A DNA stretch of 61,662 bases, the filler included, from Globobulimina sp. (lineage: Eukaryota): assembly GCA_003354225.1 (NCBI GenBank). It is 20 parts of 20 records of this genome, joined end to end, with 100 filler letters (N's around TTAATTAATTAA, not from the genome) between each part and the next. Parts side by side here need not be neighbours in the genome. Positions count along the whole stretch, not along the records: positions 9,271 to 12,259 come from PIVH01004112.1; 19 more parts are not named here. One strand, given 5' to 3'. Positions 2,991-15,208 of the stretch are shown in pieces. The notes beneath the pieces are model-generated. The model worked only from the letters and a program-made list of their open reading frames with translations, did not search any database and had not been told where the DNA came from. Each line of letters begins with the position of its first letter. The first letter of the stretch is position 1. A program made the translations under genes and the position numbers.

Positions 2991-3090
2991 NNNNNNNNNN
3001 NNNNNNNNNNNNNNNNNNNNNNNNNNNNNNNNNNTTAATTAATTAANNNNNNNNNNNNNNNNNNNNNNNNNNNNNNNNNNNNNNNNNNNN
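2991..3090. other. Artificial contig-joining spacer N44-TTAATTAATTAA-N44 (first of 19)
   Basis: Identical 100-nt spacers start at 2991, 6081, 9171, 12260, 15349, 18438, 21527, 24616, 27705, 30793, 33881, 36969, 40057, 43144, 46231, 49318, 52405, 55491 and 58577. The core has stops in all six frames and the intervening contig lengths fall monotonically from 2990 to 2986. Confidence 0.99.
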
Positions 3091-5729: not shown

Positions 5730-6323
5730 TAATTTATCATTAATATCGACATAATGCGACCAAAATTGATACGCAGTCTCTGCATTGGTTTCCAATTCTT
5801 TTCTTGCTTGTTTTATCCCTTGAGATTGAATGTAACTTTCTTATTCTTACTTTTTTTAAATAATAAGCAATAATAGCATCCCTAAAATGATGTGCTTTTG
5901 ATCATGACATTGATTGCGTAATCAGTTAATATTGTTTGTAGATACCAAATGTAAACATTTTTACAGACAAAACCTTCAAATTCACTAACACCTTTTTCGT
6001 ACACTTTGAATTAATGCCGCATGGCTTTTCATTATAAAATGGTTTTTTGGTGCAAATATTACGGATACGTGTTTTGGTTCNNNNNNNNNNNNNNNNNNNN
6101 NNNNNNNNNNNNNNNNNNNNNNNNTTAATTAATTAANNNNNNNNNNNNNNNNNNNNNNNNNNNNNNNNNNNNNNNNNNNNAAGCTTTGGGTTCTGTTGGG
6201 TTTAAATACCACGCCGTTTCAAATAGTAAAGTGAGTCAGTTCAGTTTAATTGCAAAATATTTACAAAACTATATACTTTGTCAAAAACACTCATCGGAAT
6301 TCATCGGAATTTATATAAAAAAA

Positions 6324-7112: not shown

Positions 7113-8704
7113 TTACTCAGTACGCAGGAAACAACCGCCAACTTTGGATGTGCCCATAATCATTTCCATAATCTGACTGACAATTTCCTGATTCACCAAA
7201 TAGCTCTGATTAATATCATTCAATAAGCACATGACGACGCCATCAAACACCTTCCTCCTTAACATAATCAACCACTTTAACTGCATATTAATATCCATCC
7301 AATATATCTCTCTCCACTCTTTCTCATTTAATACGGTTTTGCCATACCAATATTCTTCTTTTCTTAAGATATAGCTCATAAATTTCCGTCCATTGCCTTC
7401 CTTAAAATTAGGTGCTTCGTCCGGATCCTTTTTATTTTTGTCATCCTCTGAATCGCTGTTTGAGTTTGAATTGGAATCTGAATCAGAGTCCGAATCATCG
7501 CTATCACTGTCGGACTCCTTCGCATTCTCCTTATTTTCTGCTTTATTCTCGTCATTGATATTAATGTCATTATCGATCAACATCAATGCCTGTCGCGGCG
7601 AGATATTCCCATTCGAGATATTGGCGATGGGGGAATGTATATTTTCGTCGTAATGGTTGGGATACGACGAATAAAAATGAATGCCTTTGCTCTTCCTTTT
7701 ATATTTCTTATTCAATGGATTCTGCAAATTAGATTTAAGAATATGTTTATCCACTTCGTATTTCTCTTTCTTGTTCAATGAGTTATACTTCTTTCGGCGC
7801 GTAATATCCATCATAAATTTCAAGATTCCATACTCAAAACACGCGCAGCAAACCACGTATTCGCCCCAACAGCCATACTCTGCGCCGCAGACATAATAAA
7901 GCTCATTCTTTCGGATCCACTTCTCGCCAATGCAGCACTTTGTTTTTTTGGATGCTGTCTCTTGTTTTAATATATGATTACAAACACCGCATCGCGCTGA
8001 AAATTCCTATATTAAACATATTAAATTAAATATAGATTATATACACAATGTAAATAGAAATATGTTACCTTTTCGATAGCAAAATGCGTGATAAGTGTAT
8101 ATAAAATGTTTAAGAGTCCCTTGTCTTGGATGAGTGCTAAGGTCGGCAATAAGCGATGATACGTATTGATACCGCAACGGATCAAAGTGTAAAGCACTTC
8201 TTCTTGGTTATGATCGCAGGCATAATTAAACACAGTCTGTCCCTCATAATCTGTAATGTCGCCATTGGCGCCTCCATCAAATAATAACTGCACTAATTTG
8301 GCTGTGTTTTTAGAGGTTTGGTTATGAATAATGGTCACCATAACCGGTGTATGGCCGCGCGCGTTTTGAAAATCTATATCGATGTTTGGATGTTTAATGA
8401 ATTTTTGAATGTGTAATATATGGCCCAATTCGCAATATAACAAGAACTGATTTAATAATTCATAATTTAAGCGACGATTGATTCGCCGTGTTTGAGTGTT
8501 GGTGTTTCGCGAATGCGTATTTATTGTGTTATAATTGTGTCGCTGTATTTGATTTTCATCATACACGAGAGGCGTTGTTGGCAACTTTCTGTCCGCGATT
8601 GGCTTTATATGGACTATGGTGGGCGTGATTTCGTGATCTAAAGGGATCTCTTTGGCCAACGGATCGTCCAAACGTTTCAAGAATTGTTCATCATTGTATG
8701 ACAT
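7113..8704 (-). CDS. Ankyrin-repeat protein with Cys-rich zinc-finger-like region and acidic tract (exons 8704-8069, 8006-7113)
   Basis: Ankyrin repeats (FQNARGHTPVMVT, DYEGQTVFNYAC). A GTAACA..ATAG intron at 8068-8007 (62 nt) joins in frame to RCGVC...YYVCGAEYGCWGEYVVCCAC. Confidence 0.8.
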
Positions 8705-8755
8705 GATCAGCGAGCAAAAAACACCGCGAAAATTGTAATATTGTAAACAAATTTT

Positions 8756-9170
8756 ATGTCCAACAGAATTATGTCAAACTTAATTCAACGTATCGGAAGG
8801 AAACACAGTTACAAATTATTGCAATCATTTCTATCCACTCGTTTATTGACAGATAGATCGTTCCGATTAGCCAATGCATTGGATATCAGAGCCGGGCAAA
8901 CGTTTAAAACACAAATCTCTTCCGAAGAATATCATCCTTTTATGCATACTTTACAACCAAAGCGACAAACAGATTTAACCAAACAAGTCTTGATTGATAC
9001 GAGAGATTCCGAGTTAGATTATAAAAATGGACATATCAAAGATGCCGTCTTTTTGCCCCGAAATAGATTTGATTTTTATGAATATGTAGATACCAAAGGC
9101 GGTATTACATTCGATGAGGTTTATAACACAATGCGAGAGATTGGAGTTTCTAACGAGACCGTCGAGCTTG
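8756..9170 (+). CDS. Rhodanese/sulfurtransferase-family protein, N-terminal part, 3'-truncated
   Basis: Rhodanese N-domain pattern VLIDTR...DYKNGHIKDAVFL...MREIGVSNET. The basic N-terminus looks like a mitochondrial presequence. Confidence 0.75.
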
Positions 9171-9270
9171 NNNNNNNNNNNNNNNNNNNNNNNNNNNNNN
9201 NNNNNNNNNNNNNNTTAATTAATTAANNNNNNNNNNNNNNNNNNNNNNNNNNNNNNNNNNNNNNNNNNNN

Positions 9271-11899
9271 TGGCTGATTATAAAAACGTTTATGTCATCG
9301 GGGCGAAAGAAATGGAGGTATATGATATTGATGCGAAGCAATGGGATGTGAGAGATATTGATTTGGATATCCAGGAATTTATGGCAATGTTTTTTAAGTA
9401 TGTGTTAGCAACCTGTGCTATTACAAATGATTCCAAATTTATATATTTATTTTATAACGTAATGTTTGAGTACGATGATATTACAGGTAATGCTAAATTG
9501 ATTGAAGAGAATTTTCAGAGAAGTCAGATTTGGTATAATTATGTTGTAAAATATGATGTAAATACAGGAAGCAGCACAACATTAAGTTATCAAACCCCAC
9601 CATCTTTATGGTGGACACAATCTGCGCATGCTGTGACAGCCGGTAATGGTAAAATATATTTACACGGATGTTATATTTCATGGCAAACAGCCATATTTGA
9701 TCCAGAAACTGACCAATTCGAAACAGAAACAATTGATGTAAACAATGCAGATGTGGTGCAATTGTATGATGAGTCCCGATTAGCTAAATACGATGATAAT
9801 GTTTTATTGCTATTGTCAATCATTGATATTTCTCAACTCAATTATTACTCTGTACAAAATATTTCATTATATGCAACAATTACAGATTTAGTCTCCATTA
9901 ATATTACCGAAACAGCATTGATTTCATCGGTATGGCCATCTGACGGGTTTTCAATTAAATACTATTTAAATGATTTTAGTGACACAGCAAATGGAAGTTA
10001 TGATGTTAGATTTTATGTTGAGCCGCATGTTAACAATTCAAATGCGAATAATACCATTGACATCGATGCAGTAATTACACTAAATATATTCAATGATGAT
10101 TGTTTTTGTGAGACTAATGTTAATATTTATAGCTCAGTGAAATGCTCCCAATGCAAACAGCATTTTGATTTAAATAAATATTCAAAAGCTTTTGATAACG
10201 ATGCGAATAAATTGGACATTAATATTATTGCTGCAGAATGGCATGGTGTTACGCCGTTAATTATTCCCAAATATCTTAGCATTGCGTTGGAAAGATGTAT
10301 AATTTCGTTTGAAAATGGTGGCTCGATCAGCAACACTGATACACCAATCACAGGCTTCCATTATTCACTTAAAACAACAAATTGTTATTCAAGAGATGGA
10401 ATTGAGTTTTCTATTTCTGTCCTTTCGGCAAAAGTAAATATGGAAAAAGAATTAATAATTTCTGTCAATAATCGGCAAAGCAGCGGCAAAGTTTGCGATG
10501 TAGAGAATGTTTGTAATTCATTCGACGGCAATTATTTTGAAATAAAACATGCGACGCTTGCTGATGATGATAGATTTGCGATTAATTTTATATCCAATTC
10601 AATCGATTTAATAATTGATGACAGTTCGAAATCAATTCCTGTTCCATTCAATGTGGTGAGCTCATTATCTTCATTGGATATTGGATTAATAGTTTCTGGA
10701 TCGGTTGTTGCATTTATTTGTGTTCTGAGTATATTTGGATGGCAATACAAAAAGATTTGGGATGAAAAACAAAGGCGTAAGAAATATGAGCATAAAATTT
10801 ATAATCCGATGGTTGTTTCGCTGGGCATTGCATTTTACGACGAAGAAGTAGAGAATCCAGGAATTAATGTTCATTGTCCAAATCTTGACGGAGTGGACAG
10901 AGATTATGCAAGTATTCAAAAACTGTGTAAATTATTAAACTATGATTTATATCCAAAATATGAAAAATATGCGTGGACAGAAAAGGAAATGATTGAATTT
11001 CTTGAGGAGAGGGCAGCGGATATCGGCGGTGATAATAAAAAGCAATATGACGGTATTTTATTGGTTTTGAGTGGCCACGGATTCCAAAATAATATCATAA
11101 CCTCAGATTATCAGATGCTGAGTAAAACTGCCGTCCATAGACTTTTTTCCACAAATTATGCGTCTGTCCGGTTATTGCCACGAATGTTTATCTATGACTG
11201 TTGCGATGGTGCTCAGGAGAGATCTCATTATGCGGCTGATTATAACACGGATGAAAGTGACGAAAGTGGCAGTGAAGGGGTTGGAGATGATGCCGGCAAA
11301 GGAATCACTAAAAAAGATGAAGGGACAGAAGGGACAGAGCAAGGCAAGAATTTTGTTGCTGACGATATTAAAATAAATCAATATGATGAAGAACTTTGGA
11401 AAAAAGGTTTGATAAATTAAATTAAGTTAATTTGACATAAAATTCAATATTAAACAGATCAAAAGAATCCAGATTATAAATTATCACTTATTCATGCAGC
11501 CAATGAAGGCTTTAAAGCTAAGATGAATGCAGAAAATGGTTCATATTTAATTTATCAGTTTGCACTTCGAGTCATTGCAAATATTGAGAATGATAAGAAA
11601 AAGGAACAATTGTATGTTGGTGAAATAATTGACGGAATTCAACAATATTTGCATGATTCTGGTAAGCAACAAATAACCGCAATATTTAACAATCAAACAA
11701 GATATTTAAAATTTGAACAAAATAAAAACGAAGAACAGGAAATAAATTGTATGCTATTGAGGATAATGAAGTGATTGAAGTGGAAGATGTTGTCAGTGGA
11801 GGAGGCGAGGGGAAAAAAGAAACGCATATGATTGAGTTGCAAAAAATTGGAAAGACAAATAATGAAAATGTTACTGAAAATGGTATTGATGTACAGTAG
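9271..11899 (+). CDS. Single-pass membrane protein: kelch-like ectodomain, TM helix, cytoplasmic caspase-fold (clan CD/C14) protease; 5'-truncated
   Basis: Kelch-like pieces NVYVIGAKEMEVYDIDAKQW and GKIYLHG..IFDPETDQF. TM IGLIVSGSVVAFICVLSIFGW. p20 motifs NLDGVDRD, LLVLSGHG and LPRMFIYDCCDG. An intron at 11407-11457 (51 nt) joins the p10-like IHAANEGFKA..NGSYLI. Stop is at 11774 as read, or 11899 if one A is missing near 11745. Confidence 0.8.
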
Positions 11900-12432
11900 T
11901 ATATCAGGAATAATTTATACATTTCGTTTTAAAATATGTACAGTTTAATTTTATTTTCCTTTTTAAGTCTGTGAATCATTCATCACCGTATTTAAGGACT
12001 TAGGCCCGGTAATTGTTCTTGTGTTTCTATAGAATAATTGCAATTGTTTGCAGACTTTTACGTTTTAACTGAGGATAGATATCTGACGTTTTAACTGATA
12101 TCTTTTACGTTTCTCAGACAATAAAGATCTGACGCTGAAAACAGGCTGATTTGAACGATATATTCAGATAGACGTGTTAACTCATTTTTGGGTACACCAA
12201 ATTTTGCCTGTCAAAAAAGCAATCCTCAGCTCTACTGTGTTTAGATACAACAGAAGTGGNNNNNNNNNNNNNNNNNNNNNNNNNNNNNNNNNNNNNNNNN
12301 NNNTTAATTAATTAANNNNNNNNNNNNNNNNNNNNNNNNNNNNNNNNNNNNNNNNNNNNATACCACTGGTTTGTATCCAACATATTGCAAAGGTGCAAAT
12401 TCATAATGTGTGTTTGTGTTTGTGTGTGTATA

Positions 12433-12663: not shown

Positions 12664-12833
12664 TATGTAATATATGTCATACTTATATTGAATGCTAAAT
12701 TATAACTCTTTAATTTGTACCAATCATCAAAAAAATATAAATATACATGACACATATTTCGTAACAGATTTTTACGATACTGCAAAAATGCCTATTATAT
12801 ACATTTAAACAAAAAAAAACTCTTGTTGAACAA

Positions 12834-15208
12834 ATGATGGTTGCAGTTTTGCGTGTATGGTTGTTTGTTGTTATTTTTTCGACTCAGTTATCTCATATCA
12901 AAGCAGACGTAACACCAACAATTTCAAATTCAACTGGACAATATTTTTTTACAAGCGGCCACTTCCAGTATGATTCTGAAACATTTACATGTAATCATTC
13001 CTCATTATGTTATTTTGAATGCAATCATCTTGAAAGCTGTACTAATTTAGTATTAAATACATCATCTTCCAATGTCAATCTTAATTGTAATTATGATGAT
13101 TCATGTGTTGGTGATTTTAATTTATCATTAAGTCAAAATCTGTTTATAAATTGTAATGGTTATTCAAGTTGTGACGGCATAAATGTATATGTACATGCGG
13201 CCAATGGCACAATCAAAGGAAGTACGGCGTATATTAATTTAACAAATCATGATGATCATCGCACGTCTTACGACTATAAAAATTTCCATCTTCAAAAGAT
13301 AGATGTTGTTAATATGCAATGTGATGGTCGGGGGACATGTGATGATACAACGTTATATTGTCCATCTCATGAAGAGAATGCATGCAATGTGGCAGATTAT
13401 GATGAACAGTATGAGCCAGTGTTGAAAGTGAACGAACATTACACATTAAATTGGTTAAACTATTCACCAGAACCAAACCCACAATATCCTGTATTAGTGA
13501 CATGTATCGATGATTTGGGCAAAGAAACTGGATCAATATCAAGTAATATAATGACGTATAATGGTATTGATGTTTGTCAATATTATAGTAATTGTTGTCC
13601 ATACTCATCAGTAAAAATTAGCAATGATGATTATAAGAATGGATGGTATATTAATGACTGCATTGAAGGATATGATTGTTTTATTGATTGTTCATCGCGG
13701 TATATGACAACTGGAGTATTATCAGAATGTGGTTACAGAATAATTGATGGATCGTTAAGTAACTCTGTAACTGTTGTTTGTCCTGAAGCAAATTCATGTG
13801 ATTATACTCGCGTTATTTGTCCAATAAATGGTGGAGAGTGTAATGTCAATGTCACAATCAAAGATGGATCAAATGGATTGCGTATGAACGCGACATCATT
13901 TATTGGTAATGATTTAAACATAAATTTGAATTGTTTAGCTGATTCTAGTTGTAATGAGCCGTATATTTTTGCGCAAGATGCAATTGGAAGCAATATAAAT
14001 ATGGACATAAATTGTGTTTCGTCGGGTACTAATAACGCAGCCGCATGTTACAACTTGTTGGTAGATGGTTCATCGTCAGATTTAAATAACATTAGTATCA
14101 AATATCATGGTATTTATAATTATGATGTTGTTTATAATATGAATCCGTACGACCATGATGTTTATACTTATGATAAATTGTATTTGTTTGGTGCTTCAAA
14201 TGTTAATATTCATTGTGACGGAATGCGTGCATGTTCTGGTCGTTTAACTTAGAAAATTCAAGTAATATAGATATTATATGTGATGGTATCACAATTGATG
14301 CCTTTGATAGTCATTTTGTCCGTGGTGCAATTGGTGGTGGTTCATGCCAAGAGAGTGAATTTTATGTCGGAGGAGCCACCAATGTTAATATAGAATGTGT
14401 ATCCAACATTAATTGCTTAGGAACTCAGATTTTTGCACAAGAAAGTAATGAATTAGATGTAGTTTGTGATGGTGATGCAGCATGTTCAGATATGTTAATT
14501 AGTTATCCAGCAATGGGTCATCCACAAGCTTTTACATTAGAATGTTATGATGGTATATTTGATTATTCCTGCAATGGAATACGTATCTATTTACAGGATG
14601 ATTTCATTACAAATTTTATAGATTTAATGTGTGAGTCAAGTAAAGCATGTAATCTTATTTATTTTCGTTGTGATACAAAAGGGATTTCCATATTAAATCC
14701 GGATGAAAATTATCATTCATGTCTGAGTAATAATTGTTGTCCGATCGAAGCCAATCAGACCACAGCAAGTCCGACCACAACAAATCCAACAACTGCTTAT
14801 CCAACGACAGCAAATCCAACGACAGCAACAGAGCAACCAACGAATACATCCACCACTTCTACATTACCACAATTGACAACTACGTATAATCCAGGTATAT
14901 GTACATATTTATATGCAGTAAAATACAAATACTGTTTTGACCGGCCTCCTGTAGGCAATTCAGGTGCCAGATCAGATACATCAGGAACATCAACATCGAA
15001 GAGTTTTGGTTTTGGCATTGGATGGATTGTATTCATTATTGTTGCTGTTCTCTTTTTTTTTATTTGTGCTGCATATATTGCGTACAAAATGGGTATAAAA
15101 AACGGTATAAAAAATAAAATCAAACAAAAACACGCAATGATACCTGCATTGGAATTAGTTCAAACTCAAAATATCAACACTGCTCAAGATATTGATACTC
15201 CTCAATAA
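12834..15208 (+). CDS. Cys-rich type I surface glycoprotein with PT-repeat stalk (apparent frameshift near 14245; probable intron 14895-14954)
   Basis: Signal peptide, more than 10 copies of a (I/L/V)xC-x4/5-(S/A/T)C motif, SPTTTNPTTAYPTTANPTT stalk and TM WIVFIIVAVLFFFICAAYIAY. ORFs 12834-14252 and 14231-15208 share the same repeat and join by adding one T. Confidence 0.8.

Follow-up and report, generated by a model that had tools for sequence, protein, structure and literature searches.

The sequence analysed here (hereafter the window) is a stretch of 61,662 nucleotides (nt) from Globobulimina sp. (assembly GCA_003354225.1), and one of its contigs, PIVH01004112.1 at positions 9271–12259, carries a gene that, with high confidence, joins a receptor and a protease in one chain: a large outside part, a single membrane helix and a cytoplasmic domain of the caspase fold. 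Known caspases are soluble enzymes, brought to receptors by adaptor proteins. As an explanation of the gene as a whole we favour, at somewhat better than even chances, a 5′-truncated copy of a foraminiferan type I single-pass membrane protein. The window consists of 20 contigs of 2,986–2,990 nt each, sorted longest first and joined by spacers of the form N44-TTAATTAATTAA-N44 (2991–3090, 6081–6180, 9171–9270, 12260–12359 and further on alike), the last two of which flank the gene-bearing contig of 2,989 nt. Since these contigs are unrelated, neighbourhood within the window has no genomic meaning.

The gene is read on the plus strand, as are all its features given below, and its 5′ end is lost at the contig start (9271). 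An open frame runs uninterrupted from 9273 to 11406 (711 codons). Removal of an intron at 11407–11457 restores the codon that it splits and leaves the frame intact, so that 2,451 nt are open up to a stop at 11772–11774, corresponding to 816 amino acids (aa). The intron is a spliceosomal phase 1 intron of 51 nt with GT..AG ends and three in-frame stops. Contigs from four public sequencing runs (X1, X2, X5 and X6) were aligned to the gene contig; in those of X5, X2 and X6 precisely the 51 nt of the intron are absent, and the X1 contig retains the intron, with 0 differences from the window over 11286–11784. In the alignment of relatives A2, whose rows are mostly transcriptome-derived protein sets, the 17 codons of the intron are gaps in 89–90 of the 90 other rows, and the transcript-derived Bolivina protein P0001 is continuous across the intron site. 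The initial annotation had a p10-like segment appear only after splicing of 11407–11457, and both the skipping contigs and the gapped rows agree with this.

Spliced contigs with an identity of about 99% to the window are present in X5, X2 and X6. One X5 contig of 5,740 nt covers 9271–11404 and 11456–11808 without the intron and reaches 3,249 nt upstream of 9271. Because this single contig spans all three, outside part, helix and protease lie on one spliced molecule. The fusion of receptor and protease in one gene, as initially annotated, is thus carried both by the single frame and by the spliced contig. From the upstream extension, about 1,000 aa of the full outside part are missing from the window copy; the ectodomain of 460 aa claimed earlier is present, but as a fragment only.

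The cytoplasmic domain is composed of a p20-like half of the caspase fold (10791–11222), which aligns with the p18 chain of caspase-2 and contains the catalytic His and Cys, an acidic disordered linker (11223–11406) and a p10-like half with the motifs NPDYK..AANEGF..GSYLIY..TRYLKF (11458–11717). Pfam assigned aa 536–665 to Peptidase_C14 (PF00656) with 33.1 bits, compared to a cut-off of 21.4, over profile positions 16–131 of 233. The same family was matched in 28 of 31 long relatives, in P0013 over profile positions 5–224. The p10-like exon by itself gave no Pfam match. Residues G261 and S262 of this half are kept in 84 and 86, respectively, of the 91 aligned sequences, and P0001, together with P0013 (58%, 306 aa) the nearest relative of the spliced cytoplasmic part, is 59% identical across 311 aa that span both protease halves. 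An AlphaFold2 (AF2) model of the cytoplasmic part was computed with the intron read through, X at its three stops and 90 relatives as alignment. It reached a mean predicted local distance difference test (pLDDT) value of 87.6 and a predicted template modelling (TM) score of 0.84; the p10-like half packs with the p20-like half at pLDDT 93–98, and the linker and the intron-encoded stretch stand at 51–72.

Structure searches with this model led to caspases. Foldseek gave 337 matches at E ≤ 0.001 with caspases at the head, and all 42 of the matches listed from ranks 1–49 were animal caspases (E 9e-11 to 1.3e-9, TM score by target 0.67–0.77). VIA-align against 48,161 representative chains placed 4jj7_A first with Z 26.6 (227 aa, root-mean-square deviation 2.8), followed by caspase-9 (1jxq_A, 25.2), 4pry_A (24.6), CED-3 (20.7), MALT1 (19.8), c-FLIP (19.7) and Dronc (19.6). 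Lower scores were found for Arabidopsis metacaspase 4 (AtMC4, 18.1), Arabidopsis metacaspase 9 (AtMC9, 17.2), legumain (16.3), Yca1 (13.9) and TbMCA2 (11.8). Among all solved chains, only caspase-2 p18 passed an E of 0.001 by sequence, at 1.2e-4 with the protein as query and at 3.3e-7 with the profile of 91 relatives, and the nearest clusters in the ESM Atlas were animal caspases (score 0.94). By model and by sequence comparison, the cytoplasmic domain is assigned to the C14 fold of clan CD, the alpha-beta-alpha sandwich of the caspase/hemoglobinase type, and is closest to animal caspases; the intact caspase-fold protease of the initial annotation is in this respect supported by the AF2 model, by Foldseek, by VIA-align and by Pfam alike. 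Membership in the metacaspases or paracaspases was considered and not adopted, their fold scores lying 5–8 Z units under those of the caspases.

The catalytic pair can be named from the same alignment. The His at 11076–11078 (in LSGHG) aligns with LLSHG of caspase-2 p18 and the Cys at 11202–11204, the second Cys of YDCCDG, with IQACRG; since both are in register, we take the two residues picked out initially as the catalytic dyad. The His and the Cys are each conserved in 88 of the 91 aligned sequences, the Gly directly after the His is present in all 91, and three relatives have lost His and Cys together. The surroundings of the Cys are altered. Two residues before it, where caspases have the Gln of Q-A-C-x-G, stands an Asp (11196–11198) that is conserved in 90 of 91 sequences, and the pentapeptide here, D-C-C-D-G, does not conform to the caspase motif. 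An Asp at this position is a feature of para- and metacaspases. The mixture of a metacaspase-like D-C-C with a caspase-like layout, remarked on in the initial annotation, is therefore real at the level of motif conservation, and it goes together with Z-scores that are highest for caspases. By motif alignment, the arginines of the caspase S1 pocket (Arg179 and Arg341, caspase-1 numbering) would correspond to Leu (88/91) and to Met or Leu (66/91), with Leu and Met in the window protein. Because Gln is replaced by Asp before the catalytic Cys, specificity for Asp is unlikely, and the enzyme would most likely cleave after Arg or Lys.

The linker was annotated as Asp-rich, which it is. In relatives it has a median length of 55 residues, abounds in Asp, Glu and Lys, and holds a conserved Lys (72/91), Asp (63/91) and Trp (85/91); an Arg or Lys is also found six residues past the catalytic Cys in 62 of 91 sequences. 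If the enzyme is specific for basic residues, the linker Lys and the Arg/Lys after the Cys may be candidate self-cleavage sites. The length of the linker varies between near-identical copies. Two in-frame changes of 9 nt relative to the window are seen, a gain of GATGAAAGT behind 11249 (X5) and a loss at 11319 (X6).

A single hydrophobic segment (aa 461–492, 10653–10748) separates the protease from the outside part. Its Kyte-Doolittle maximum over 19 residues is 2.58 (peak 10680–10736) and it is the sole segment above 1.6 in the 816 aa, the next best value elsewhere being 1.29, which agrees with the one transmembrane helix initially placed at about 10680–10742. The helix is followed by the basic juxtamembrane stretch WQYKK..KQRRKK (10749–10790), a short helix in the model. 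As annotated, this stretch is basic: seven Lys and Arg are found in the 15 aa past the helix and one in the 15 aa ahead of it. The same positive-inside bias is seen in 105 of the 109 relatives having the helix, and a hydrophobic, signal-like N-terminus occurs in 48 of the 89 relatives that start with Met and whose pre-helix part exceeds 200 aa.

Domain placement in the family points in the same direction. In a Pfam scan of the 31 long relatives, Lectin_C was found in six, Kelch families in nine and SAM in three. Kelch lies N-terminal of the helix in P0038, at the positions listed there; P0003 has a precomputed PF00059 match and its helix at 1109–1127 of 1156 aa; and SAM lies C-terminal of the protease in P0095, P0038 and P0097, with E down to 4e-24. 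Over 110,462 family residues, pre-helix parts contain 1358 N-glycosylation sequons against 982 expected from composition (1.38-fold), compared to 1.08-fold in post-helix parts, and Cys content is 3.64% before and 1.73% after the helix. On the strength of these sequence features, namely the positive-inside bias, the signal-like N-termini, the lectin and SAM placement and the contrast in sequons and Cys, the protease is placed on the cytoplasmic side; the charge bias, here and in the relatives, argues against an outward-facing domain. The tether between membrane and protease is short, with a median of 12 aa from helix end to the start of the match in relatives and about 25 juxtamembrane residues in the window protein.

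The outside part can be divided in two. Residues 1–205 (9273–9887) look like a partial beta-propeller, cut at its 5′ side by the contig end, and residues 206–460 (9888–10652) form a stalk of beta-sandwich modules, marked by conserved Cys and the motif WPSDGF.IKYY. The AF2 model of the 460-aa fragment is all-beta throughout, with a pLDDT of 82.1. With VIA-align, the kelch domain of Keap1 came out on top for aa 1–205 (Z 11.7 over 157 aa), followed by WD40 and NHL propellers at 10–11, and Pfam found no Kelch in the window fragment at E up to 1. The kelch-like character claimed for the ectodomain hence applies to aa 1–205 only, where the label is fair but unproven; the sandwich of aa 206–460 falls outside it. 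Across 26 rows, W221, S223 and Y230 of this stalk never change and six Cys are almost always kept. Propeller and stalk searched together with Foldseek gave integrin alpha, complement C4 and transglutaminase, with TM scores of 0.25 or less. The ectodomain had also been called rich in N-glycosylation sites, which does not hold for the fragment (6 sequons, 6.2 expected from composition); across the family, the pre-helix parts do have an excess.

The protease domain belongs to a large family. The p20-like piece was searched against 1.84 billion cluster representatives and matched 517 of them at E ≤ 0.001, 376 at ≤ 1e-10 and 34 at ≤ 1e-30. Among the 150 matches listed, 109 leave 70 aa or more on the upstream side, and in 107 of these 109 a helix-like segment lay within 90 aa upstream, compared to 3 of 410 control windows. 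The segment was missing in P0042 and P0094, the match of the latter beginning late in the query. Bolivina argentea and Nonionella stella, as represented in EukProt, account for 22 of 24 proteins looked up, with one each from NCBI, Logan and ENA besides. Within the window itself, tblastn with six family members gave no match outside the 9271–12259 contig. The outside part of the window type was found in only 26 of 161 fetched proteins (E ≤ 1e-5), so the protease sits behind varied outside parts. The search for paralogs with variable ectodomains that had been suggested with the initial annotation thus yielded what it was meant to find. These sequence matches place the gene in a foraminiferan family of very large size, represented in at least three data sets, in which one cytoplasmic domain stands behind varied outside parts; a variable outside with a constant inside is the pattern of sensor families.

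Four proteins, P0002, P0004, P0005 and P0006, have the window-type outside part and the helix, followed by a caspase-like domain of another, distant type, which has 22–26% identity to that of the window (E 1e-4 to 0.09) and motifs such as VIVHVISHG and HACRG or HTCMG. Two protease types are therefore combined with one outside module.

How such a protein would be switched on can be proposed by analogy, and we rate activation through ligand-driven clustering of the cytoplasmic domains a little below an even chance. The outside part and helix would stand in for the prodomain and adaptors of initiator caspases. A multivalent ligand, such as prey, a microbe or a cell-surface glycan, would gather two or more cytoplasmic domains, which would dimerise and become active in the way of initiator caspases and MALT1. 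The active protease could then cut cytoplasmic substrates and perhaps its own linker. The SAM domains in three family members hint at regulated oligomerisation.

The main competing explanation, though an unlikely one, is a membrane-anchored housekeeping or remodelling protease with constitutive or local activity and no ligand switch, which would for instance trim proteins of the cytoskeleton or of trafficking within the reticulopodial network while its outside part served adhesion or matrix contact. A protease held about 25 residues from the membrane fits local action, the propeller and stalk resemble the layout of integrin alpha (at TM scores of 0.25 or less), and a very large size such as that of this family is common among adhesion families. 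However, the fold is nearest to caspases, single chains of which are inactive and need dimerisation or cleavage, the lectin, kelch and other ligand-binding modules vary while the protease is constant, and the SAM domains in 3 of 31 members suggest regulated oligomerisation.

The domain might instead be a non-catalytic scaffold that signals by partner recruitment, like c-FLIP or MALT1 in its scaffold role, which we regard as improbable. The protease-like domain of c-FLIP is structurally close (Z 19.7), and 3 of 91 relatives have jointly lost His and Cys; but retention of His and Cys in 88 of 91 and of the Gly after His in all 91 is hard to explain without catalysis, and the window copy has both residues. 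That the window copy is dead or mis-assembled, a truncated fragment with a frameshifted tail, is very improbable: the contig start does truncate its 5′ end and one base near 11737–11739 differs from the contigs of three runs, yet the spliced frame of 2,451 nt has no other stop, the frameshift comes only after the protease domain is complete, three runs contain spliced contigs of about 99% identity and every conserved family residue checked is intact.

A foraminiferan membrane receptor with a caspase-type protease inside, switched by clustering, remains the reading we prefer, and several points weigh against it. Activity, dimer, ligand and substrate are things that we infer. The membrane may be that of the phagosome, the endoplasmic reticulum or the Golgi instead of the cell surface, and, with the 5′ end of the window copy missing, any signal peptide of its own is out of view. 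Cleavage after basic residues is predicted from one aligned residue, the other two S1 positions coming from motif alignment, and the type of propeller is tied among kelch, WD40 and NHL within about 1 Z. The frame of the window stops 125 nt before the end seen in the contigs of three other runs. Finally, the kinds of the X5 and X2 runs are off record and X6 is taken as RNA by guess; the reading as spliced RNA consequently draws on the relatives known from transcripts as well as on the GT..AG borders of the intron and the stops in its frame.

Compared to known systems, the closest are the animal initiator caspases (caspase-8, caspase-9, caspase-2, CED-3 and Dronc; MEROPS C14A), which are the best structural matches with Z 26.6–19.6 over 200–229 residues. 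The window protein shares with them the p20-like half, the long linker, the short p10-like half and the His/Cys dyad in register. Unlike them, it has a large outside part followed by a membrane helix where CARD or DED stands, and F/Y-D-C-C-D-G in place of Q-A-C-x-G; Pfam found no death-fold prodomain of the CARD or DED type in the window protein or the 31 long relatives. MALT1 and the metacaspases (C14B) share the C14 fold (MALT1 Z 19.8, AtMC4 18.1). MALT1 is activated by dimerisation, and in para- and metacaspases Leu-x-Gly replaces the Arg-x-Gly of caspases. We assume that the Asp two residues before the Cys and the Leu-x-Gly are common to the window protein and to MALT1 and the metacaspases. 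The window protein differs from MALT1 in having no death or Ig domains and a p10-like half that is short and caspase-like.

In overall layout, with an outside part, one helix and a cytoplasmic enzyme, it resembles single-pass enzyme-linked receptors such as receptor tyrosine kinases and receptor guanylyl cyclases. Eph receptors have the order ectodomain, transmembrane helix, enzyme and SAM, and the three family members with a C-terminal SAM resemble this layout. Unlike the receptor kinases and cyclases, the enzyme here would be a cysteine protease, with irreversible cleavage as its output and not phosphorylation or a second messenger.

Caspase-like proteins of the foraminifer Reticulomyxa have been reported. 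According to the accessible text of Klim et al. (2018, PMC5982838), they branch with animal caspases at 92–95% bootstrap, and the fold and sequence results for the window protein agree with these trees; the window protein is very probably a member of this set or a paralog. Reticulomyxa caspase-like proteins also appear in PMC10565124, and one of them, ETO10778.1, serves as a caspase outgroup in PMC10959488. As far as the main text of PMC5982838 is accessible, it contains neither 'receptor' nor 'membrane-bound', and 'transmembrane' only for membrane potential, although its supplements may list such proteins; the receptor layout, the size of the family and the Asp-for-Gln change are likewise not found in that text. 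A search of full-text literature found no membrane-spanning or receptor-type caspase described in foraminifera or other protists, with the qualification that the Reticulomyxa genome paper (doi 10.1016/j.cub.2013.11.027) may list such proteins. In the accessible part of a coral caspase paper (PMC4715348), the six 'transmembrane' passages belong to an abbreviation list or to Bcl-2 proteins and not to anchored caspases. As to whether the architecture had already been catalogued, the answer is divided: we did not find the receptor layout described, but the Reticulomyxa caspase-like proteins have been in print since 2018 (PMC5982838, as far as accessible). A known protease family is thus seen in a receptor layout that is apparently undescribed, and its specificity pocket is altered.

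The nearest precedent for the idea is in bacteria. Cyanobacterial metacaspase-TM-CHASE2 proteins are predicted, in the accessible part of Asplund-Samuelsson et al. (2012, PMC3501461), to combine an extracellular sensor with a cytoplasmic caspase homolog in one chain. These proteins differ from the present one in being bacterial and multi-pass, with an N-terminal protease of the bacterial metacaspase type and other sensors, and they are predictions.

We propose tentatively, and with less conviction than for the clustering step, that such 'receptor caspases' form an enzyme-linked receptor class undescribed in eukaryotes, with hundreds of paralogs whose lectin, kelch or beta-sandwich outside parts vary and that would recognise prey, microbes or non-self in one component, free of adaptors and of a death-fold step, and would signal by irreversible proteolysis, probably after basic residues. 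If this is true, caspase-type proteases would be direct receptor effectors in a protist lineage, separate from the adaptor-based apoptosis wiring of animals, and could have a role in whether meeting reticulopodia fuse or get cut off. If clustering does activate the protease, a new type of enzyme-linked receptor would stand beside receptor kinases and cyclases. The family would then also bear on the use of caspase-type proteases outside animals and on how a giant cell with a fusing pseudopodial network discriminates food, foe and self. The Asp-for-Gln exchange in a caspase-like fold is moreover a test case for P1 specificity within C14.

The C-terminal tail behind the protease domain exists in two versions. 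Read by the letters of the window, it spans 11718–11774 and ends with the stop at 11772–11774, in agreement with the X1 contig. An alternative tail in the next frame (..HMIELQKIGK..DVQ stop, 11726–11899) requires one extra base near 11737–11739. This base is present behind 11737 in X5 and X2 and behind 11739 in X6, within a short G run or A run, and is absent from X1 and the window. The end at 11899 given in the initial annotation is therefore reached with the extra base seen in the three runs, and not in the frame of the window itself. A change of frame by splicing was rejected, as the sole GT..AG pair in this region spans 13 nt, which is below intron size; since the contigs show the extra base, a one-base difference is preferred. 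The window copy may have a one-base error or be a variant allele at this site, and homopolymer error and real variant both fit. The difference falls downstream of the complete protease domain. The alternative tail alone gave no Pfam family; a motif [IVLM]E[LMF]Q occurred in the tails of 4 of 37 relatives and in 0 of 37 controls, a weak signal.

Just ahead of the tail, a stretch of 35 nt at 11683–11717 (..FNNQTRYLKF), which is the conserved end of the p10-like half, recurs inside otherwise different contigs in all four runs. These recurrences presumably come from paralogs that share the segment at the DNA level.

Near the 3′ end of the same contig and outside the gene, a repeated element lies at 12173–12247, for which no strand is assigned. 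Contig depth in X1 sums to 883 over the element and to about 8 over the gene; the element has loose ends on either side and is probably a dispersed repeat. The next contig holds an open frame of 495 aa (12765–14252) that is rich in Cys and N-x-S/T and has a hydrophobic stretch near its start. By its sequence it looks like a secreted or surface protein; tblastn gave no match between this frame and the six family members tried. On the previous contig there are two open frames, at 8021–8773 on the minus strand and at 8747–9170 on the plus strand, the former of which appears ankyrin-like by eye.

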